The notes under the pieces are model-generated. The model saw nothing but the letters and a program-made list of their open reading frames with translations, searched no databases and had not been told where the DNA came from. Positions 1,027-16,628 of a DNA stretch of 43,003 bases are shown here, piece by piece. The DNA comes from a virus. Lineage: Duplodnaviria; Heunggongvirae; Uroviricota; Caudoviricetes. How positions within the stretch are numbered: the stretch's first letter is position 1; each line of letters starts with the position of its first letter. Made by a program: the position numbers and the translations under genes. Where the stretch lies: IMG/VR virus record IMGVR_UViG_641522624_000003. The stretch is one strand, 5' to 3'.

Positions 1027-1063
1027 CTTGGAATTACTTGGAATATTTTCTTGGAATATTTTC
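1027..1063. repeat. Short direct repeats between tRNA and int (3x CTTGGAAT; tandem 13-bp TTGGAATATTTTC x2); candidate integrase arm-type binding sites of attL
   Basis: Repeats read directly at 1027-1034, 1037-1044, 1050-1057, with tandem 13-mers at 1038-1050 and 1051-1063, immediately 3' of the int stop codon. Confidence 0.4.
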
Positions 1064-2059
1064 AGGTAACGGGACATCAAGTGTTGGTGAAACTTTAACC
1101 TTCCTGTCATAGATTAGCACTTGCCCTTCGGTTTTGTGACCAGAGAAAAGTTGCTTATCCCGGCTGCTTCCTTCATAGTCTGAAATTCCTTTCGCCTTCA
1201 GATCATGAAAGGTGAAGTCGGTTAAAATACCTGAAATTTTTCCAGCACGATTTCTTGCATCTACCCACATTTCGTTAAAGCCTTTGTACATATATCGGTT
1301 GCCGTATTGATTGCTGATCACATAGGCAGATTTTGGTAACTGTTTTGCTTTTTCGATCGCTGCCTGTAATCGTGGACTCCATGCTTTTATCTGTTTTTTT
1401 CCGGTTTTCCCTTGCTGGATGAATATCCCGTCGTTTCCAATCTGTTCCCATTTCAGCGATAACACATCGGAAACCCTCGCTGCACACAGATAGGCAATTT
1501 CCATTGCGATAAAAACAGGAAGAGGTGCAACGCTTAATACTGCCTGGTATTCTTTGTCGGTTACATATCGTTCGCGGTTTTTGGCCTTGAATTTACTTAC
1601 ACCTGCACATGGGTTAGCCTTCACGTACCCTCGCTCATACCCCCAACTGTAAACACGGGACATACTGCTTTTTTCATGGTTGGCTTGCGTTTTACTCTGC
1701 TCCCCTCTTTTGTCCATGTATCGACGGATGTGTTCTGGTTTTATGGAATCCGCTGGTACCTTACCGAATACGGCAAGCAACTTTTTTTGATGTTGCAGAT
1801 AATCTTTTTGTGTTCTTGGACTAAGGTCACTGTAATAGGCGCTGGCGAGGAATTTTTCCCACAAGCGACCGAATGTCATTGCACGATCGCGATTATTTAC
1901 AGTTTCCTCATACTTTTTCCATAAAGCAGCTAAACCATCCTTGATGGCGGTTAGTGTGACAGATTCTCTGGATGTTGGTTTCCATACATAACTATATTTA
2001 TTTGGGTATACATTTGGAGGTAATTTTTCGTGTTCAGGATTTTTCCTTCGTCTTCCCAT
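1034..2059 (-). CDS. int: Tyrosine-type phage integrase
   Basis: ORF track 341 aa; C-terminal catalytic region with R..HxxR..Y pattern (FTFHDLKAKGISDY...GHKTEGQVLIYDRK); sits next to a tRNA gene and an excisionase-like ORF. Confidence 0.85.
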   Translation of the reverse strand: MGRRRKNPEHEKLPPNVYPNKYSYVWKPTSRESVTLTAIKDGLAALWKKYEETVNNRDRAMTFGRLWEKFLASAYYSDLSPRTQKDYLQHQKKLLAVFGKVPADSIKPEHIRRYMDKRGEQSKTQANHEKSSMSRVYSWGYERGYVKANPCAGVSKFKAKNRERYVTDKEYQAVLSVAPLPVFIAMEIAYLCAARVSDVLSLKWEQIGNDGIFIQQGKTGKKQIKAWSPRLQAAIEKAKQLPKSAYVISNQYGNRYMYKGFNEMWVDARNRAGKISGILTDFTFHDLKAKGISDYEGSSRDKQLFSGHKTEGQVLIYDRKVKVSPTLDVPLPENIPRKYSK

Positions 2060-2262
2060 CAGATCGCACCAAAATTCGGCTCTACCTCGCGTGGTGGTAA
2101 AGTTTTATTGCAGGTAAATAGATCCCGGCTGACAATCGGTTTGCCACTACGATTGGTATAGAACGGAAGCCCGTTTTCCATTAACCATTTTCGCTGGTGG
2201 CTTGCATATTTGCAGCCCGTTAATATTAGCAATTCATCTTCGGTTAAAAATAAGCTGCTCAT
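2059..2262 (-). CDS. xis: Excisionase-like protein
   Basis: 67-aa ORF immediately upstream of int and overlapping it by 1 nt; size and position typical of lambdoid Xis. Confidence 0.6.
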   Translation of the reverse strand: MSSLFLTEDELLILTGCKYASHQRKWLMENGLPFYTNRSGKPIVSRDLFTCNKTLPPREVEPNFGAI

Positions 2263-2320
2263 AGCTATATCTCATAACCGCCGCTAACTATATACGGTTA
2301 GCGGCAATTAGGGTTGAACA

Positions 2321-4762
2321 TTAAAAATCAGCCTGACTCGGGATCAGTTTTTGCCAGATAGCTGAAACGTATTTTGCCTGGTAACGAGCGTCATCAAGTG
2401 CATTATGGCGCTCACCTTCGAATGGAATAGCCGTTCTGGCATCGAAGTCTATGGCTTTCCCCAGCTCAACGATTGTGCGTACATCGCGATCGTTGTAGTA
2501 ACGCCACGGGCAGGGGATCCCCTGCCGTTCGTATGAACGGCGCAAAATCGTGTTGTCGAAGTTGGCTCCATTTCCCCAAACCTGAACAAAAAATTCACCG
2601 GAGTTTTCGTCGATAAATTCCCGCAATTGTAACAGTGCATCATCTAACGGGATTTCATCGGTCATAATGGCAGATTGCGCTTCGCGTGATTGCTTAAGCC
2701 ACCATTTAATGGTGTCCCGATCAATGACTCCGCCAGCAGTTTCCAGATCGATAGTCTTACTAAATTCCGGTCCCATATCTCCGGTTTGCGGATCGAAAAA
2801 TATTGCACCTATTGAGATGATCGGGGCATCAGGATTTTTTCCCATGGTTTCAAGGTCGATCATTAGATGGTCACACGTCCTGCTGGTGGATGTGATTTCG
2901 TGATGACCGTTCACCTTAATTGGGTGATCTGCCGTCTCGCCAGTTTTATTATCGCTGGCGTGATGCTGATTGCCGCCAGGGTTCTCCTTGTGTGGATGTT
3001 CAGCGCCTTCCATTTCCTCCGGATCATTTTCCTGAACTTCAACCTGATTCTCTTCATCGAATGTTTCCTGGTATGTTGCGTCGCCCATCACCGCGCCACA
3101 ATCAGGGCAGTTGCCGCCACCGCTCTGACCGCAGGCGGTGCAGACTTTTTCCGGTTCCTGTTGCGCTACTGGTTCGGATTGTTTCGTTTCTGGCTCGTTT
3201 TGTAACGCATTTGGGCTGTTTTGTTCCGCTTTTTGGTCGTTCCGTTCCGATTCATGCTGGTTCTGGTTCACAGAATCGCGAGTCTGGATCCCCTTGACCC
3301 ATTTCGGATCATTAGGGTCGCTAATCCCCTCAACAAATTCACCACGCGATACAGCAAGTAACTTATCGGCGTCAGGCTGGCTGATATTGGCTGCCTGCAT
3401 AATTTTGTTTACTTCGTCAGCGGTGACTTTTACTTGGTTAGCGGAACTCACCTGCGACTGAGCATCCAGCGACTGCGCGTTCTGGCCATGTTCAGTTGTA
3501 TCCGGTTCCATTGTTTCAGTTGTTGCCTGTTCACCTGCCATTGCGTCAGATGGTTGTGGTTTTTCTTCTTCTGTTTCACGCTCAGTAACCACCTCGCGGT
3601 TAATTTCTTCCAGGATATCTTTTTCCGGCGTATGCCGGGCAGCTGTGAGAGTTTCCTTGCTGGGGTTCTCGTGATCAGTTTCCGTCAAATAGGCGTTGAT
3701 ATACCCCTGAAGGCGTCCCGGGTAGTGATAAAATTCAGGGTGTGCGCTTCGGATAAGTGCAAAAATAGCGGCGCGGGAATAGTCCAGAATACCCGGGGTT
3801 GCACGAAGTGCTGCGGACCATTCTTTGAACGGACTTTCTTTGTTCAGGACTACTTCTTTTGCGCGACGATAAACGCTGCCCGGAATTTCATAAATATTAA
3901 AATCCATCGGAAGTGTGGCTGCTGCAATCTCCACATCCAGTGTGTCGAGGGTGTGTACTAAATTCGGATTGCGATCGGTTTTGTTCCCACCGCCAGCATT
4001 AGCACCGGAAGCCGTGCGGGTGATGCGTGAAACACGATTTCCTTTCATCCACTCTTTTGTCAGCAGACCCCGATCAGTGTAGTCAGCGTCCAGGTATGCT
4101 TCGAAAAAAGCAGTTATTAGTCCCAGGTCTGAATTACCAGGATTAGGGAAAACTTTGTCAGTGTCACGAACCAGTTTGTGGAGGTCGCGAATCTCCAGCG
4201 AGTCGAGCAGACTGGTTTTATGCGAAATAGCCAGGGCAGTAACAGCCGGTAGTTCTTCAGCCCGTGCAATGTGTAATGCCTGGAGTTCGTCGCGTGAAAC
4301 GTGCGTTACTGGTTTTTCGCTGCCGTGTTGAGCAAGCCAACGAATGGGCAGTTCCTGACCGGAGACAGGCAGAAGCATGCTCTCCTCAATCTCAGTCATG
4401 TCTTCGCCGTTGATGTTGGTATTGTCAGTGCTGGCTGGTTTGTCCTGAACAGAGGGGGAAGGGCCGATAAATGTCATTGTGATGCCATCTTTCCCGCCTT
4501 TTTCATAGCGGTTGCAGAATTCAGTATCAAACACGCCTTCTGGCGGAAGGTCGTCAACAACGGGCAAATTGACGCGGACGGGTTTTTTAAAGTCGTCTTC
4601 ATCATAATCGTTGTCATCCATTGCGGTAATGCAGCGGGAGATTGCAACAGATAATTTTTTTGCTGTAGTCCAGTAAAAACCACCTTTAATTCCCAGGCGT
4701 TTTCTTACTTTGTCATTTTTTGCTTCGCAATATAGTGCAAATTCTTCTTTATCAGTGCTCAT
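2321..4762 (-). CDS. Large phage exonuclease: RecE-N-terminal-like region, central Cys4 zinc ribbon, C-terminal DnaQ-like (DEDDh) 3'-5' exonuclease domain
   Basis: 813-aa ORF. N-terminal segment ([10 protein letters not shown]...[21 protein letters not shown]...) matches my memory of the RecE N-terminal region; [16 protein letters not shown] zinc ribbon; C-terminal [10 protein letters not shown]...WGNGANFD...[10 protein letters not shown] looks like the DnaQ Exo I/II/III motifs. Confidence 0.6.
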
Positions 4763-4855
4763 TATTGGTAAACCTCATCACAGATTTAAGGGTGAACAAA
4801 TCTCTGCCATTGCTGACATATAAGAATGAAACTGGATATTTATTACGGTGCTGTT

Positions 4856-5047
4856 TTAAAATCCTGCCGGGATTTCGTTATTATCCTGGTGAATAACTTT
4901 ATCGACCGGATAACAGTTGCCTGGAATTTTCTGTTCGGTTGCTGCTGCCATACATTCCTGCTTTGTTCTGTGAACACTGACTGCAATATCAACTGGCCCT
5001 CCGGAAACAAGAAAAACCGTCAGAATAAGTGCAAATACTGGATTCAT
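4856..5047 (-). CDS. ydfD: YdfD-like small lysis/membrane protein (63 aa from internal Met MNPVF)
   Basis: ORF track 4856..5101 (-); hydrophobic N-terminus MNPVFALILTVFLVSGG; lies directly downstream of dicB as in the Qin dicB operon. Confidence 0.55.
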   Translation of the reverse strand: MNPVFALILTVFLVSGGPVDIAVSVHRTKQECMAAATEQKIPGNCYPVDKVIHQDNNEIPAGF

Positions 5048-5232
5048 TGTGCACATCCTTTTGGCATCAGACGTAAACGGGCCAGCATTGAAACAATGCA
5101 TACTTTATTTAATAACTCCCGTTCGTGTTTTCTTTTGTTAATGGCATCTTCAGTAAATACAGGATTACTGATAGTGACACCAATTTCAAAACAACCTTCA
5201 GACGTATTAACGTTTGGTAATAACGTTTTCAT
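5044..5232 (-). CDS. dicB: Cell-division inhibitor DicB
   Basis: 62-aa product MKTLLPNVNTSEGCFEIGVTISNPVFTEDAINKRK.ERELLNK.CIVSMLARLRLMPKGCAQ, recalled as near-identical to E. coli DicB; start at the internal Met of track ORF 5044..5337. Confidence 0.8.
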   Translation of the reverse strand: MKTLLPNVNTSEGCFEIGVTISNPVFTEDAINKRKHERELLNKVCIVSMLARLRLMPKGCAQ

Positions 5233-5401
5233 TATCGCGCCCTCAACAATGAGTTTTGTGATGCGGTGCCTGGTGCCTCCAGGTGACGTTAACCAGTTAA
5301 CAATTAACGCCGGATACAGAGAATCCACCCATAACACTGTTTTTGGTTTTAACTGTTCCGCGTGCGCTTAGCCGCATTCACCGCATCACAAAATTCACTT
5401 T

Positions 5402-5459
5402 AAAAAGGGCGGCAGAGCAGTCACGGAGTAAAACTGATACCGCCAAACGTCACCAGAAA
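5402..5459 (-). ncRNA. dicF: DicF small regulatory RNA
   Basis: Minus-strand sequence TTTCTGGTGACGTTTGGCGGTATCAGTTTTACTCCGTGACTGCTCTGCCGCCCTTTTT matches my memory of DicF including its terminal hairpin and U-tail; located between ydfC and dicB. Confidence 0.8.
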
Positions 5460-5799
5460 ATTGATAACAGAGGGCGTTGCAGCGGGGTTGTCACTTAAGC
5501 GTATGGTCAACCTGACAACCCGGTGTCCTCAACGGGGAAGGAATAACCCCGCCATACTTACCGCCGCGCCATTTCGCGGAGTGCCACAACCGGAAGCGCA
5601 CGGTCGACGAAAATTTAACGACAGGCTATCTATGAACCAGCTACCTCGCCGTGCGCTTTCGCGTTATGGTCTGACTTTTCAGGGAAATATCCTTTCAGTA
5701 AACTGTCAGTGCCGGATGCTCACCCGTGTCCGGCGCACGCACTCCACCTCACCCGTGGAGAACTCCTTAATTACCAACCTTAGCTTCGTTGGTTAGCTA

Positions 5800-6018
5800 T
5801 TAACGCGGGTATGTAATCATTCTGGCAATGCTTAATGCCGCTGCTTTTTCCAGATTGGTGATATCCTGCTCCAGAGCGGACAGATTTTCAGCCTGCTTAG
5901 CCCTGGCTTCATTAGCCCATTTCAGATCCTGCGCTGCATTAATTTTCTGGCGCATCCACTCATAAAGTTCATCATCGGTATAGTCTGGCGCGATTATGAC
6001 GGGTTCTCGTTTCTGCAT
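5800..6018 (-). CDS. ydfC: YdfC-like protein (72 aa)
   Basis: ORF track 72 aa (MQKREPVIIAPDYTDDELYEWMRQ...); position and size match ydfC of the dicB operon. Confidence 0.6.
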   Translation of the reverse strand: MQKREPVIIAPDYTDDELYEWMRQKINAAQDLKWANEARAKQAENLSALEQDITNLEKAAALSIARMITYPR

Positions 6019-6047
6019 ACTGATTCCTCGCGGTGCTACTTCGCTTA

Positions 6048-6176
6048 TCAGCCGTTAGATTTTGCCGAGCTGGAAAGCGCCTGTTTAAACTCACTGAAGC
6101 TGAGAGCTTCTTCGCCTTCGGCAAGGTCTTCGAAGTATTCTTCGTAAGCCTTTTCCATGATTGCGTCGAAATCCAT
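6048..6176 (-). CDS. ydfB: YdfB-like small acidic protein (42 aa)
   Basis: Hand-translated minus-strand ORF MDFDAIMEKAYEEYFEDLAEGEEALSFSEFKQALSSSAKSNG; below the 60-aa cutoff of the ORF track; start codon abuts the ydfA stop. Confidence 0.55.
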   Translation of the reverse strand: MDFDAIMEKAYEEYFEDLAEGEEALSFSEFKQALSSSAKSNG

Positions 6177-6177
6177 A

Positions 6178-6333
6178 TCACTCACCTGAATTTCTTTCCA
6201 GCCAGCGACGCGCGTCAGATTCGGTTTTAAACGTTTTACTTCTGGTATACGTCATGGCGGTGAATGTGCCGTCCTGGTTGGGGAACACACCACATACCAG
6301 AGATTCGCTGTTGCCAAGATCGATAGTATCCAT
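6178..6333 (-). CDS. ydfA: YdfA-like protein (51 aa from internal Met MDTIDL)
   Basis: ORF track 6178..6438 (-) opens with TTG; the internal ATG gives a 51-aa product matching the size of ydfA. It is the first gene of the leftward operon downstream of a DicA operator copy. Confidence 0.55.
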   Translation of the reverse strand: MDTIDLGNSESLVCGVFPNQDGTFTAMTYTRSKTFKTESDARRWLERNSGE

Positions 6334-6448
6334 GCTGACCTCATTACCCCTTAACGCCGGGTAGCGGAACTGTTTGCTGAGAACACCGTGCGGTGTCTTG
6401 ATGGGTGGTAATTTAGTTTTCTCATGAATGTTGGTCAAGCATTTTTAA

Positions 6449-6461
6449 TGAGAAAACTCAA
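6449..6461. promoter_or_regulatory. Palindromic operator-like site TGAGAAAACTCAA (copy 1), upstream of the dicB-operon genes
   Basis: 13-bp element with inverted halves TGAG/CTCA around AAAA; an identical copy lies in the dicA-dicC intergenic region. Confidence 0.45.
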
Positions 6462-6522
6462 TATTTAATGCAAAATAAAGCCAATACATTGAAATGTAAG
6501 GCTTTAAAATTTGTGAAGGGGG

Positions 6523-6930
6523 TTACTGATGTTTGTTACGTTTGCGAGCTTCTAGTAGCTCGGTGAATAGGCGATTAAAATTCTCAACGCGGGCACGGAG
6601 TTCGCTGATTTGTGCTTGCTGCTCTGATTTTGGAAGTGCGCGATACAATCGCAACATCTCCAACTCATCTTCCGATAAGTCTAAGGCGCTGTTGAGTGCT
6701 ACTGGTGGATCTGGTGTTTTATCCTCGTCACCAAACAGTATCCAAGTTGGTGAACATTGCAATACCTCAGCCAGGCGATGCAAATTTTGCCCGCGCGGGG
6801 CTGTATGGTCGCTTTCCCATAGTGAAATTGATGAGCCAGATACGCCAGCGGCTTTGCTTAAATCGTTTTGACTTAAACCAACCTGTTTGCGTCTTTCTCT
6901 AATTCGTTGACCTAAAGTTTTCTCGTTCAT
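6523..6930 (-). CDS. dicA: DicA-like HTH (XRE-family) repressor
   Basis: 135-aa ORF with N-terminal HTH (LGQRIRERRKQVGLSQNDLSKAAGVSGSSISLWE) and C-terminal segment LQCSPTWILFGDEDK recalled from DicA; divergent from a DicC-like gene. Confidence 0.8.
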   Translation of the reverse strand: MNEKTLGQRIRERRKQVGLSQNDLSKAAGVSGSSISLWESDHTAPRGQNLHRLAEVLQCSPTWILFGDEDKTPDPPVALNSALDLSEDELEMLRLYRALPKSEQQAQISELRARVENFNRLFTELLEARKRNKHQ

Positions 6931-6981
6931 ATTTAGATATCTTAATAACCCTTGACTTGAGATTCCTTGAATGATTACTAT

Positions 6982-6994
6982 TGAGAAAACTCAA
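6982..6994. promoter_or_regulatory. Palindromic operator-like site TGAGAAAACTCAA (copy 2), in the dicA-dicC divergent promoter region
   Basis: Exact second copy of the 13-bp element, overlapping the 5' region of the dicC-like gene. Confidence 0.45.
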
Positions 6995-7007
6995 CTTTGG
7001 AGGGGTG

Positions 7008-7235
7008 ATGTTTAAATCAGACGTAATTAATTTTTATGGGACGAAAGCCAAAGTAGCGAAAGCTGCTGGTGTTGATCCATCTGCTGTTTCTCAATGGGGG
7101 GAACTGGTTCCTGAAGGTCGCGCGATGCGCCTGCAAGAGGCATCCGGCGGGGAACTTCAGTACGACCCCAAAGTTTATGACGAATATCGTAAGGCAAAGC
7201 GGGCGGGGCGGTTGAACAATGAAAATCACCCCTGA
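7008..7235 (+). CDS. dicC: DicC-like Cro-type regulator
   Basis: Product contains LVPEGRAMRLQEASGGELQYDPKVYDEYRKAKRAGRLNNEN, recalled as DicC-like; start taken at the internal ATG of track ORF 6981..7235. Confidence 0.7.
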   Translation: MFKSDVINFYGTKAKVAKAAGVDPSAVSQWGELVPEGRAMRLQEASGGELQYDPKVYDEYRKAKRAGRLNNENHP

Positions 7236-7770: not shown

Positions 7771-8782
7771 AAAGGTGAAAACCGGCAGTTCATCCAGTAA
7801 GTCTGTATTGACCTGGCTTGCTGATATGTGCGGTGCCGATTTGTGTGCATACCCGTCTGTATCTGCACTGGCAGAAGTAACGGAACTAAACAAAAAGACT
7901 GTGCAGGACAGCTTACGACACCTGATGGAGATTGGGTTAATTGTTGATACCGGTGAGAGAAAAGGCAGAACAAAGCAAATTGTGGTGTACCGACTTATCG
8001 GTGTAGAAGAAAGTGTTGCCGAGCCTGAATACACCCAAAAACGGGAGTCTTTAAAGGTGGGTAAAATTGGTGCTGTTAATAAAAACAGTACCGAAAATGG
8101 TTATGTTTCAGCACAAAACAGACCCAAAAACGGAACTCTTAGCTGCATGGAAAATAACCAAAGACACCCAAATTTTCCATCAAAGACACCCAAAAACGGA
8201 TCACGGAACCCAAAGGAACCCAAAGATCTAAACCCCACACATAACGCACGCGAGAGTGCTCCGACCAGTGAGCAGGAAGTTTTGTCGTTACAGGCAGCAC
8301 CCCTTGTATTCCTGGATGGCCTGAGCGAACCCATCGGAAAATTTCCGATGACCGATAGCTGGTATCCGTCACGGGATTTTCGACGACGGGCTGCGTTGTG
8401 GGGGATGGCTTTGCCGGAGACAGAATTTACACCTGCTGAACTTGCCGCCTTCCGGGACTACTGGGCAGCGGAGGGGAAAGTGTTTACTCAGATTCAGTGG
8501 GAGCAGAAATTCGCCCGTCACGTAAATCACGTCAGGGCGCAGGTTAAACCAGTCAGCAAGGGGGTAAACCATGCAGCAGCACCAGGTGGCACCGCATCAC
8601 GGGCAGTTCAGGAAATTCGGGCAGCACGTGAGCAGTGGGAACGTGAAAACGGATTTATCAGCGACGGAAACGGTCTGGAAGCTGTGGGAACTCATGGGGG
8701 AGGTTTATTCGAACCGCTGGACCCAGAAGAACGGGGCCGCACCTTCGAAGCTCTGGATTGCACAGATTGGCGCGATGACTGA
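7742..8782 (+). CDS. Replication initiator (O-like): N-terminal HTH domain, C-terminal DnaT-like domain
   Basis: Start at MSIDALRWAKK within track ORF 7667..8782; HTH segment SVSALAEVTELNKKTVQDSLRHLMEIGLI; iteron-like repeats lie inside the gene; C-terminal region FTPAELAAFRDYWAAEGKVF resembles DnaT-like domains. Confidence 0.6.
   Translation: MSIDALRWAKKVKTGSSSSKSVLTWLADMCGADLCAYPSVSALAEVTELNKKTVQDSLRHLMEIGLIVDTGERKGRTKQIVVYRLIGVEESVAEPEYTQKRESLKVGKIGAVNKNSTENGYVSAQNRPKNGTLSCMENNQRHPNFPSKTPKNGSRNPKEPKDLNPTHNARESAPTSEQEVLSLQAAPLVFLDGLSEPIGKFPMTDSWYPSRDFRRRAALWGMALPETEFTPAELAAFRDYWAAEGKVFTQIQWEQKFARHVNHVRAQVKPVSKGVNHAAAPGGTASRAVQEIRAAREQWERENGFISDGNGLEAVGTHGGGLFEPLDPEERGRTFEALDCTDWRDD
8030..8226. 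repeat. Iteron-like repeats (ACCCAAA core, about 6 copies; tandem GAACCCAAAG x2), putative replication origin inside the initiator gene
   Basis: Direct repeats at about 8031-8044, 8120-8134, 8162-8172, 8183-8200, 8206-8215 and 8216-8225. Confidence 0.5.
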
Positions 8783-10741: not shown

Positions 10742-11199
10742 GAGAGGTTAACTATGAGGCGCTTCGTGAGGCAGCACAAAACTATCAGTCGACGCTGGCG
10801 TGGTATCAGGCTATCCCGGACAGCCCAAATGCTGAACGGGATTGTGATGCGGCTCTTGCTGCGTTTAAGCGTCACATCCGTCATCGGGAAGCGGATATTA
10901 TCGCTGATTTGCTGGATGGACTGGAAGAAGCAAAATCACAACTCAAAGAGCAGCGTGAGTATTACGAAGGCGTTATCTCTGATGGGAGCAAGCGTATTGC
11001 TGAACTGGAAGCGCGGGAAGTTCAATTACCGACTCGCTACGACCTTCGATATGGACACCCGATAAATGCAGATGAGCGACATGTCATGATACCTAAAGAA
11101 AATGGCAGTTGGCTTTACCTGATTGACCTAGAACACGCATTACGCGTCTCTGGCATTCGCATCAAAGGAGAGGAGCATGGAAATAAAACCAGAGGATGA
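10738..11199 (+). CDS. Hypothetical phage protein
   Basis: 153-aa ORF translationally coupled (ATGA overlap) to the upstream gene; no recognisable domain. Confidence 0.4.
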   Translation: MREVNYEALREAAQNYQSTLAWYQAIPDSPNAERDCDAALAAFKRHIRHREADIIADLLDGLEEAKSQLKEQREYYEGVISDGSKRIAELEAREVQLPTRYDLRYGHPINADERHVMIPKENGSWLYLIDLEHALRVSGIRIKGEEHGNKTRG

Positions 11200-11533
11200 G
11201 TTAAGCAATATCGTTTTATTTCCGGTAAAAGAGGATGACCCTCGTAATCAGGTTAATTTTCTTTATGAGCCATCGGAAAGACCATATTGTCATCACGCCT
11301 CTGTCCGGGTTGACGAAAAAGAGCGTCAGGTCCGCTGTAAAATCTGCGGTGCAGTTGTGGAGCCATTTGACTGGATGCTCTCTGTGGCGAAAAGAGAAAC
11401 CAGACTGGCAGATGATGTAAGGCTCTTGCGTCAGGAGGAGCGGGAAAGGCGAAAAAATATAGAAAAGCTAATTCAGATTGAGCGTAACGCGAAAGCGCGG
11501 ATACGCAGGGCGACAAAATCCAGAACTGAATAA
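11177..11533 (+). CDS. Hypothetical protein with CxxC zinc-ribbon-like motif and basic C-terminal tail
   Basis: 118-aa ORF; C..H...CKICGAVVEP then an Arg/Lys-rich helix. Confidence 0.4.
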   Translation: MEIKPEDELSNIVLFPVKEDDPRNQVNFLYEPSERPYCHHASVRVDEKERQVRCKICGAVVEPFDWMLSVAKRETRLADDVRLLRQEERERRKNIEKLIQIERNAKARIRRATKSRTE

Positions 11534-14016: not shown

Positions 14017-15072
14017 GTGCGGGTATTACTTCGACCTGTTCTGGTACCGGAACTCGGGCTGGTGATCGTTAAGCCGGGCCGTGAATCCATGCCGGTATTC
14101 CACAATACCCGGGTACTGGTGGAGCCGGAACCGAAAAGCATGCGCGGTCTGCCGTCCGGAGTCGTCCCTGCCGTTCGCCAGCCGCTGGCGGAGGATAAAT
14201 CATTACTGCCATTTTTCAGCGATGAGCGGGTGATTCGTGCTGCTGGCGGCGCTGGGGCACTGTCTGACTGGCTGTTGCGTCATGTCAAATCCTGCCAGTG
14301 GCCTCATGGTGACTATCATCACAGTGAAATCGTCATACATCGTTACGGTACCGGCGCGATGGTGTTGTGCTGGCACTGCGACAACCAGTTGCGTGACCAG
14401 ACATCCGAATCACTCGGGCAACTTGCTCATCAAAACCTGTCAGCATGGATGATTGACGTCATACGCCATGCAATGAATGGCACGCAGGAGCGGGAATTGT
14501 CGCTGGCTGAATTATCCTGGTGGGCGGTCTGCAATCAGGTGGCGGACGCGCTTCCGGAGGCAGTATTACGTCGTTCTCTGGGGTTACGTGCGGAAAAAAT
14601 CCGCTCCTTGTACCGCGAAAGCGACATCGTACCGGGAGAGCAGACCGCCACCAGCATACTGAAGCAGCGCACAAAAAATCTTGCGCCGTTGCCTCATGCC
14701 CACCAGCAAAACCCGCCACAGGAAAAGACGGTGGTCAGCATTGCCGTTGATCCGGAGTCACCGGCTCAGTATCTCCAGCGCCAGAAACCACAACGGGAAG
14801 AGATGCCTGTATACACGCGTTGGGTAAAAACGCAGAAATGCATGACGTGCGGTAATCAGGCAGATGATCCGCATCACATCATTGGTCATGGACTGGGAGG
14901 GATGGGAACAAAGGCTGATGATTTGTTTGTTATTCCGCTGTGCCGTAAATGTCATAACGAACTGCACGCCGGGGTAAAAGATTTTGAAGAAAAACACGGC
15001 AGCCAGCTGTTGTTGCTGATTCGTTTTTTAATGCACGCGAGAAATTCGGGTGTCCTGAAGTGGAAAGCATGA
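14017..15072 (+). CDS. DUF968-family protein (YdfU-like) with C-terminal HNH-like zinc-finger motif
   Basis: 351-aa ORF; C-terminal CMTCGNQADDPHHIIGHGLGG...LCRKCHNELH; recalled as YdfU-like by size and position upstream of rusA and Q. Confidence 0.55.
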   Translation: MRVLLRPVLVPELGLVIVKPGRESMPVFHNTRVLVEPEPKSMRGLPSGVVPAVRQPLAEDKSLLPFFSDERVIRAAGGAGALSDWLLRHVKSCQWPHGDYHHSEIVIHRYGTGAMVLCWHCDNQLRDQTSESLGQLAHQNLSAWMIDVIRHAMNGTQERELSLAELSWWAVCNQVADALPEAVLRRSLGLRAEKIRSLYRESDIVPGEQTATSILKQRTKNLAPLPHAHQQNPPQEKTVVSIAVDPESPAQYLQRQKPQREEMPVYTRWVKTQKCMTCGNQADDPHHIIGHGLGGMGTKADDLFVIPLCRKCHNELHAGVKDFEEKHGSQLLLLIRFLMHARNSGVLKWKA

Positions 15073-15438
15073 ATGACTGAACGCATAGAATTTGTTTTGC
15101 CTTACCCGCCGACGGTGAATACCTACTGGCGACGTCATGGCAATACGTATTTCATCTCGGAAGCCGGAAAGCGTTATCGCCGTGATGTGGCGCTAATTGT
15201 TCGCCAGCAGCGGCTGAAATTAAGCCTGTCCGGAAGGCTGGCGATAAAGATTATTGCAGAGCCACCGGATAAGCGCCGCCGCGACCTGGACAATATCCTG
15301 AAGGCACCACTGGATGCGCTGACGCATGCCGGACTACTTATAGACGACGAGCAGTTTGATGAAATCAATATTGTGCGCGGTCAGCTCGTTCCTGGTGGGC
15401 GGCTGGGGATAAAAATCACAGAACTGGAGTGCGCATGA
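15073..15438 (+). CDS. rusA: Holliday-junction resolvase RusA
   Basis: 121-aa ORF with the RusA-family pattern (LPYPPTVNTYWR...DKRRRDLDNILKAPLDALTHAGL..DDEQ). Confidence 0.8.
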   Translation: MTERIEFVLPYPPTVNTYWRRHGNTYFISEAGKRYRRDVALIVRQQRLKLSLSGRLAIKIIAEPPDKRRRDLDNILKAPLDALTHAGLLIDDEQFDEINIVRGQLVPGGRLGIKITELECA

Positions 15439-16318: not shown

Positions 16319-16394
16319 GGCCCTTTAGCTCAGTGGTGAGAGCGAGCGACTCATAATCGCCAGGTCGCTGGTTCAAATCCAGCAAGGGCCACCA
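16319..16394 (+). tRNA. tRNA with anticodon CAU (Met or lysidine-dependent Ile2)
   Basis: 76-nt cloverleaf: acceptor GGCCCTT/AAGGGCC, D stem GCTC/GAGC, anticodon loop CTCATAA, T-loop GCTGG-TTCAAAT-CCAGC, 3' ACCA. Confidence 0.7.
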
Positions 16395-16395
16395 G

Positions 16396-16472
16396 CCGCC
16401 ACTAGCTCATCAGGAAAGAGCGTCAACCCTTTAAGTTGAGTGTGCGAGGTTCGAGTCCCCGGTGGCGGTCCA
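16396..16472 (+). tRNA. tRNA with atypical anticodon loop CCTTTAA (C at position 33); nominal anticodon UUU, Arg(UCU)-like backbone; isotype uncertain
   Basis: 77-nt cloverleaf: acceptor CCGCCAC/GTGGCGG, D stem GCTC/GAGC, anticodon stem TCAAC/GTTGA, T-loop CGAGG-TTCGAGT-CCCCG, 3' TCCA. Confidence 0.5.
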
Positions 16473-16474
16473 GT

Positions 16475-16550
<76 letters not shown>

Positions 16551-16553
16551 TAT

Positions 16554-16628
<75 letters not shown>

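Follow-up and report, generated by a model that had tools for sequence, protein, structure and literature searches.

The DNA analysed here (the window) is a stretch of 43,003 nucleotides filed under Caudoviricetes as IMG/VR record IMGVR_UViG_641522624_000003, and its content is a lambdoid prophage integrated at tRNA-Ser (892-981), adjoining mtfA. On the minus strand, 2321..4762 is a single open reading frame (ORF) with an ATG start that encodes an exonuclease of 813 amino acids (aa), exactly as an earlier note on this DNA had described it. Judging from profile matches and alignments, the protein is very probably composed of a RecE-family non-catalytic scaffold (~617 residues) joined to a DEDDh 3'-5' exonuclease of the DexA/Rv2179c family, and this architecture is that of a natural chimera. 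Its gene is intact and belongs to the early-left (dicB) operon of a lambdoid prophage of the Qin/Tritos type. As for its role, we tentatively propose, with more doubt than confidence, that the enzyme may act in the lytic cycle to trim DNA 3' ends in a phage leaving recombination to host RecBCD-Chi-RecA. Taken as a whole (the chimera, its place in the early-left operon, and 3'-end trimming beside host recombination), this is the best explanation we can offer, and its chance of being right falls just short of even.

The protein is identical to WP_000102142.1, and PGAP names it 'exonuclease' or '3'-5' exonuclease' in 100%-identical copies. The gene type is already known: RefSeq has an identical protein, the Pfam architecture is not new, and the module type appears in a 2025 survey in which the Rec modules of 314 lambdoid phages of enterobacteria are grouped by function into 13 types (PMC12315714; Zheng, Casjens, Davidson, Amundsen, Smith, Genome Res 2025). 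The domain combination singled out in the earlier note is neither rare nor new, since roughly three in four complete E. coli genomes carry it and it belongs to the published Tritos type. What is added here is the exact mapping of the junction, at least five alternative scaffold modules including a Rad52-like fold, and the link to Chi-rich RecBCD-dependent phages.

Domain anatomy and modules of the RecE-type scaffold

The gene and the parts of its product are as follows.

2321..4762, minus strand: exonuclease gene, whole (813 aa), from the identical annotated coding sequence and domain matches
3575..4762, minus strand: aa 1-396, folded RecE-family N-terminal scaffold with sub-domains at aa ~1-104 (alpha/beta) and at 120-245 and 250-396 (helical)
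3143..3574, minus strand: aa 397-540, acidic low-complexity linker (28 D+E against 12 K+R)
3098..3142, minus strand: aa 541-555, CxxC-x7-CxxC zinc ribbon (C541, C544, C552, and C555), kept in K-12 RecE
2912..3097, minus strand: aa 556-617, second acidic linker and last RecE-homologous stretch, from BLASTP and tblastn end points
2354..2869, minus strand: aa 632-803, DEDDh 3'-5' exonuclease domain of the Rv2179c/DexA family (Pfam E 7.2e-68)

The N-terminal region is RecE-like, as had been claimed. PF06630 (Exonuc_VIII) matches aa 57-189 (nucleotides, nt, 4196-4594) with an E value of 3.6e-36, and aa 58-617 align with residues 50-592 of K-12 RecE at 59% identity in BLASTP, beyond which there is no alignment. 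Neither a catalytic motif nor a known fold was found in the scaffold of aa 1-396. The first acidic linker is predicted to be disordered at least at aa 397-430, with a predicted local distance difference test score (pLDDT) below 50 from aa 397 on, and the zinc ribbon gives a weak match to Pfam DZR (E 0.096).

The C-terminal domain is covered by PF16473 (Rv2179c-like) at aa 632-803, which corresponds to profile positions 2-177 of 177, with 228 bits against a cut-off of 27. All five DEDDh residues (D, E, D, H-x4-D) are intact as D636, E638, D736, H786, and D791. The earlier note had taken this domain to be DnaQ-like rather than of the RecE nuclease fold, and the full-length match agrees with that assignment. 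The profile match and the alignment to solved DexA point to an RNase H-like fold, and as a member of the DEDDh family the domain should have 3'-5' polarity. Sequence searches lead to no solved structures other than 8KEL and 8KEN, both of T4 DexA. DexA belongs to the same Pfam family, and its DEDDh motifs align with those of the window domain. Contrarily, DexA is a standalone enzyme of 227 aa with extra loops and ~27% identity, from a virulent phage with hydroxymethylated DNA, and its residues proposed for tetramerisation and 5-hydroxymethylcytosine (5hmC) recognition are not clearly conserved in the window domain. Closer relatives are the standalone DnaQ-like exonucleases (LLS gp34, YDC107_1, and others), which are 53-58% identical to the window C-terminal domain but have no RecE-type scaffold. 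E. coli ExoX and ExoI, also cited in PMC12315714, are likewise DnaQ-superfamily 3'-5' DNases; unlike the window protein they are host enzymes without the scaffold, and no close sequence similarity to them was detected.

The position of the junction should be noted. At the nucleotide level, gene nt 339-792 match K-12 recE at 92% and nt 1192-1837 at 75%, with no homology past nt 1837. The NCBIfam equivalog for exoVIII, NF007259, scores 942 bits, which does not reach its cut-off of 1269, and matches aa 1-613 only, that is, profile positions 1-600 of 877. BLASTP and six-frame tblastn found no counterpart of RecE 593-866 in the window. These end points place the junction at aa ~612-617, equivalent to RecE aa ~588-592, and the 5'-3' PD-(D/E)XK nuclease of RecE comprises residues 564/606-866 (PMC11611040). 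Since RecE homology stops at residue 592 and gene nt 1837, the joint falls exactly where RecE's own nuclease would begin. RecE (exonuclease VIII of the K-12 prophage Rac) shares with the window protein the N-terminal ~600 residues including the zinc ribbon, and also the same early-left operon position near xis and int, but it has the C-terminal PD-(D/E)XK 5'-3' nuclease and an adjacent recT. By this alignment, the block 'RecE nuclease domain + recT' of Rac is swapped for the DEDDh domain.

Relatives of the scaffold carry several other modules at their C-termini. A first homologue search with aa 1-430 gave only near-identical partial E. coli sequences, and a HMMER scan with the same segment over 1.84 billion cluster representatives gave 215 proteins at E<=0.001. 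Among the matches listed (150 of the 215 representatives; those of at least 450 aa were classed), ~24 end in a RecE nuclease, ~14 in a DEDDh domain, nine in a third module, 11 in a fourth (for example P0176, P0219, and P0170), and two clusters, P0124 (703 aa) and P0255 (615 aa), end in RecT (Pfam RecT E 1e-42; PHROG RecT-like). P0124 and P0255 are either natural fusions of a RecE N-terminus with RecT or in-frame deletions of the nuclease domain. The fourth module matches only PHROG 26058, of unknown function; its conserved motif is YRQQLTLAALQGxCANP.

The third module has the signature KKSLTDAxKKALSxLGFxADxxLGLYD, which we take to be reminiscent of Rad52-family annealases. By sequence alone (Pfam, PHROGs, and phmmer and hmmsearch against the PDB), the sole labels for this module were inherited 'exonuclease' names. 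The tail of P0184, one of these proteins, was modelled with AlphaFold2 (pLDDT 71) as a helix, a long beta-hairpin sheet, a helix, and then a coiled coil. In a Foldseek search of this model against the PDB, the top 26 matches are all RAD52 (best E 3.7e-5, probability 1.00), suggesting that the predicted fold of the third module is that of a Rad52-like annealase. As a standalone protein, the domain is found in D3-like phages of Pseudomonas and in Vibrio phages, and gp07 of Pectobacterium phage ZF40 has it fused to the scaffold. In ZF40 and Pseudomonas phage PMG1, the two checked, the Rad52-like gene is followed by a Sipho_Gp157 gene. Public names of these Rad52-like proteins are 'exodeoxyribonuclease VIII' or 'RecE family exodeoxyribonuclease', and such naming as exonucleases is probably wrong. 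For the gene type as a whole, public naming is inconsistent, with 'exodeoxyribonuclease VIII', 'exonuclease', and '3'-5' exoribonuclease' all in use.

The first ~265 residues of the scaffold exist in two unrelated versions, RecE-like and Tritos-like, while residues ~266-430 are the part most widely common to the family. The gene of phage Tritos exemplifies the second version. Its product has aa 270-813 in common with the window protein (71% overall, and almost identical from aa ~443 on), and the flanking genes are the same, but its N-terminal ~245 residues are unrelated to the RecE/PF06630-type first ~265 residues found here. The occurrence of at least five alternative C-terminal modules suggests that the RecE-type scaffold is a platform for swappable effectors. 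Every identifiable scaffold partner is a recombination effector, and chiefly for this reason we assign the DEDDh version to DNA-end processing and not to defence. Full-length RecE is a standard tool of direct cloning owing to the boost that its N-terminus gives to linear-linear recombination, and learning what the RecE-type scaffold binds would explain this boost.

Recombination context and conservation of the gene

The earlier note had reported no annealase partner near the gene, and the finding extends to the whole prophage, where six-frame tblastn, profile scans, and annotation are all negative. In tblastn against the window in six frames, RecT, lambda Bet, P22 Erf, Gam, Abc2, NinB, and NinG gave nothing below E 0.06, and the Rad52-like domain of the scaffold relatives gave no match at E<=0.01. 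Ten early ORFs with no assignment or a weak one were scanned with PHROGs and Pfam, and no annealase was among them. The scans gave a CII-like/YdaT protein, a DnaT-like replication initiator, P, DUF1627, and Ren-like DUF977, and the remainder are DUF4406, an Ea22-like protein, unknowns, and the DUF968/HNH protein. PGAP annotation of a 99.9%-identical prophage contains no annealase, single-stranded DNA-binding protein (SSB), or Gam-type protein. The exclusion of Sak4- and gp2.5-type annealases is based only on PGAP names and the profile scans (PHROGs, Pfam), and GamL, MuGam-type inhibitors, and SSB were judged from annotation and profile scans only. Sequence profiles and the exhaustive ORF and six-frame search revealed neither a RecE-fold C-terminus nor an annealase gene, the two outcomes that the earlier note had named as telling against it. 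The sole other recombination-related genes of the prophage both lie in the nin region.

14017..15072, plus strand: DUF968/HNH gene, beside rusA; not an annealase
15073..15438, plus strand: RusA resolvase gene; not an annealase

The exonuclease would then not be one half of a two-component recombinase of exonuclease and annealase.

Chi sites are abundant. The octamer GCTGGTGG occurs 14 times in the window (between 2193 and 31139) against 1.54 expected, a roughly ninefold excess that 0 of 100 shuffles reach. Nine of the sites are on the plus strand and the remaining five on the minus strand.

2193, 2882, 12537, 17972, 19317, 21032, 21472, 21828, and 31132, plus strand: Chi octamers GCTGGTGG

One of them (2882-2889) lies inside the DEDDh-coding part of the exonuclease gene; Tritos likewise has Chi within its exonuclease gene (record L017, 27079). 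The top/bottom strand counts are 9/2 for Tritos and 0/0 for P22, which has Erf and Abc2. The whole genome of Tritos has no match to RecT, Bet, Erf, Gam, Abc2, or the Rad52-like domain.

These features coincide with those of a published module. The Tritos type (prototype Tritos, four phages) has a nuclease without annealase, SSB, or anti-RecBCD function, and its top/bottom Chi counts run from 21/6 down to 7/2 (PMC12315714). In the window, too, there is a nuclease, no annealase, SSB, or anti-RecBCD function was found, and Chi is abundant (nine on plus, five on minus). According to the same survey, phages without a recombination system of their own rely on RecBCD and Chi, and growth of phage LLS is aided by RecBCD. 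LLS resembles the window in having a DEDDh gene (58% identical) that adjoins xis/int, no annealase, and abundant Chi, and it was scored as having no Rec module (PMC12315714). The survey also mentions sporadic DnaQ-type genes near int and 'RecE-2' proteins that have no nuclease domain and whose roles are given as unknown; its available text describes neither the chimeric architecture nor a role for this nuclease.

On the minus strand, the gene order is int, xis, the exonuclease gene, ydfD-like, dicB, DicF, ydfC/B/A, and the DicA-like repressor gene, and the plus strand carries cro, ydaT, replication genes, nin-region genes, Q, lysis, terminase, and head and tail genes. The K-12 cryptic prophage Qin has the same gene order.

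1034..2059, minus strand: tyrosine integrase gene, beside tRNA-Ser (892-981), marking the side of the left attachment site, attL
2059..2262, minus strand: xis-like DUF4224 gene, directly downstream of the exonuclease gene
4856..5047, minus strand: ydfD-like gene, directly upstream of the exonuclease gene, same operon
5044..5232, minus strand: dicB, upstream of the exonuclease gene, same operon
5407..5458, minus strand: DicF small RNA (Rfam RF00039, 76.7 bits)
5800..6333, minus strand: ydfC, ydfB, and ydfA, promoter-proximal genes of the dicB operon
6410..6438, minus strand: sigma-70-like site at the dicBp position, from a consensus match only
6523..6930, minus strand: DicA/CI-like helix-turn-helix repressor gene, in agreement with the K-12 Qin layout

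A consensus scan of the minus strand within 1900-7100 found only one sigma-70-like site, that at 6410-6438, and none directly upstream of the exonuclease gene. Because the only such site is at the dicBp position and none precedes the gene, the exonuclease may be produced only once the DicA-like repressor is lifted, a suggestion for which the scan is weak ground.

The gene is among the commonest E. coli prophage genes, often present in several copies. Of 5426 complete E. coli genomes, 1244 contain the whole gene (coverage >=80%) and 4047 the DEDDh-coding segment, which lies at 8108 places and in up to seven copies per genome; the comparison block 'recT + RecE nuclease domain' is found in 1728. 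Four divergent copies at three sites (tRNA-Ser/mtfA, ompW, and Qin) all show the order int-xis-exonuclease-ydfD-dicB, and no annealase was found at any of the four. The same order is kept in the sequenced phages Tritos and Evi, and the gene is also carried by phages mEp460, HannyBb, PhiR42_1, and several vB_Eco. When clustered at 50% identity, proteins with a RecE-type N-terminus and a DEDDh domain fall into 14 groups, which come from Escherichia, Citrobacter, Kluyvera, and Atlantibacter.

In a comparison of the window with phage Evi, the ratio of nonsynonymous to synonymous substitution rates (dN/dS) is 0.148 on the DEDDh domain (dS 1.13) and 0.26-0.5 on the acidic linker, the N-mid segment, and the RecE-homologous segments. 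Since these ratios are low, and lowest on the DEDDh domain, the gene is maintained by purifying selection that is strongest on the nuclease domain. In K-12, the Qin pseudogene ydfE occupies the same locus downstream of ydfD/dicB and is an N-terminal remnant of this gene type; unlike the window gene, it is cut by IS2 and so has no DEDDh domain (record L005, 10079-10999). At the Qin locus, E. coli B retains the 3'-5' exonuclease gene intact (823 aa; record L022, 7001-9472), and therefore the two standard laboratory strains differ in this enzyme.

Proposed role and its rivals

In the proposed role, the scaffold would bring the nuclease to the same DNA ends, or the same recombination or replication intermediates, as it does for RecE's own nuclease. 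There the DEDDh domain would strip nucleotides from 3' ends, namely single-strand tails, overhangs, and flaps, while strand exchange yielding packageable concatemers would be done by host RecBCD-Chi-RecA. A possible specific task is blunting of 3'-tailed ends, so that RecBCD could load; this is suggested because RecBCD requires nearly blunt ends, and host single-strand exonucleases can assist RecBCD. A bolder version, speculative and on balance rather unlikely, is that the RecE-family N-terminus serves enterobacterial temperate phages as a general delivery platform for DNA-end effectors (5'-3' nuclease, 3'-5' nuclease, RecT, Rad52-like annealase, and a further module), and that attachment to this platform makes a 3'-5' exonuclease, normally anti-recombinogenic, a RecBCD-Chi helper, for example by end blunting, in phages without their own recombinase. 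If the DEDDh version does aid RecBCD-Chi, it would fill a gap in a recent model in which at least a fifth of lambdoid phages outsource recombination, and it would be an example of a 3'-5' exonuclease that promotes recombination and does not inhibit it.

Several points weigh against the proposed trimming of 3' ends. 3'-5' exonucleases (ExoI and ExoX, for example) as a rule degrade the 3' tails on which RecA depends and hence usually inhibit recombination (PMC12315714). The Pfam family PF16473 is named after an exoribonuclease, and membership of the family does not settle whether the substrate is DNA or RNA. Standalone DEDDh copies are also present in P2-like, N15-like, Chi-like, and YuA-like phages, where no connection to recombination is evident. 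The predicted fold of the N-terminal scaffold gives no clue to function; the promoter scan is a consensus match only, in which the number of sites is no higher than chance; and the searched literature, including that on ydfE/Qin and on Rv2179c in phages, contains no experiment on the protein or a close relative.

Among the alternatives, a prophage defence nuclease comes first, though it is itself unlikely. In that case the DEDDh domain would destroy a superinfecting genome, either 5hmC DNA, as proposed for EcD ('HREX'), or the 3' ends of RNA phages, as shown for TONDO. EcD, an E. coli homologue of DexA, is reported to degrade T4 DNA and to protect cells (PMC12153337), and ISG20-like 'TONDO' enzymes, DEDDh exonucleases that carry auxiliary domains and are encoded on mobile elements, are reported to block MS2 and Qbeta (PMC13344964); the window domain belongs to the DexA/Rv2179c family, and the extreme prevalence, up to 7 copies per genome, would also suit defence. 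However, the gene lies deep in a repressor-controlled early-left operon without a promoter-like site of its own, so that it should be silent in a lysogen. PADLOC-DB v2 gave 0 families for the protein and its neighbours, free-living temperate phages retain the gene, and the scaffold's other fusion partners are recombination enzymes. The two precedents can also be compared in sequence. EcD starts MIDTET and is hence a different protein, and its reverse-primer sequence scanned against viral contigs gave nothing or a chance match. In an alignment at ~27% identity with DexA as the reference, DexA D90 (A in EcD, said to give a dimer and 5hmC specificity) corresponds to D708 here and is thus retained, and D169, the acidic residue proposed for 5hmC recognition, corresponds to F773, flanked by D772 and D774. 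TONDOs are described as a distinct sequence group, and the score of the window protein with PF00929 is 21.7, below the cut-off of 24.

It is quite improbable that the enzyme performs DexA-like salvage, in which host or broken DNA or oligonucleotides would be degraded to mononucleotides for phage DNA synthesis during lytic growth. T4 DexA is the nearest characterised relative, and scavenging of host DNA is one of its two accepted roles (PMC12153337), but identity to DexA is merely ~27%, and salvage leaves the 617-residue RecE-type scaffold and the exact swap of nuclease and recT unexplained. It counts further against salvage that no lambdoid phage is known to degrade the host chromosome.

A counter-defence enzyme that removes a 3'-ended immune component, such as retron multicopy single-stranded DNA (msDNA), reverse-transcriptase products, or linear oligonucleotide signals, is very improbable. 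RecE acts on retron msDNA, and, circumstantially, this early phage gene is located close to int, in a region of clustered accessory genes. Against this, no homology to known anti-defence proteins was seen, the gene has a fixed place in a conserved operon and shows no variable 'accessory' behaviour, and the searched literature gave no support.

The weakest alternative, hardly credible, is a functionless relic left decaying after a RecE gene lost its nuclease and RecT by illegitimate exchange: K-12 Qin retains only truncated ydfE, many prophages of the type are defective, and one- or two-gene Rec modules have been called 'somewhat suspect' (PMC12315714), but the ORF is full-length with its five catalytic residues, dN/dS is 0.15 on the nuclease and 0.26-0.5 elsewhere, the architecture persists in several genera, and the gene is present in sequenced phage genomes.

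A connection of the exonuclease to a particular cos-end chemistry was considered separately and dropped, since the window has a P27-type TerS with HNH and Tritos a lambda-type terminase, and both carry the gene.

Other features of the prophage

The integrase gene (1034-2059) is frameshifted according to PGAP in near-identical prophages of three genomes. Because of this flag, the prophage, complete apart from its integrase, may have lost the ability to excise by itself.

The DUF968 (YdfU-like) gene at 14017-15072 matches PHROG 96 'HNH endonuclease' with an E value of 3e-166 and also Pfam HNHc_6; its product is the prophage's second putative nuclease. Just 3' of the Q antiterminator gene, four tRNA genes at 16319-16628 are of the Met type with a CAT anticodon, Lys-TTT, Thr-TGT, and Gly-TCC, and the one with the CAT anticodon is Ile according to PGAP.

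In the 99.9%-identical prophage of strain TUM13770, the IS5-like element ISKpn26 is inserted after the Ea22-like gene (record L003, 11200-12180). The element is apparently absent from the window (~11150-11200), as the window aligns to the TUM13770 record in two pieces with 98% coverage and an offset of the downstream features.

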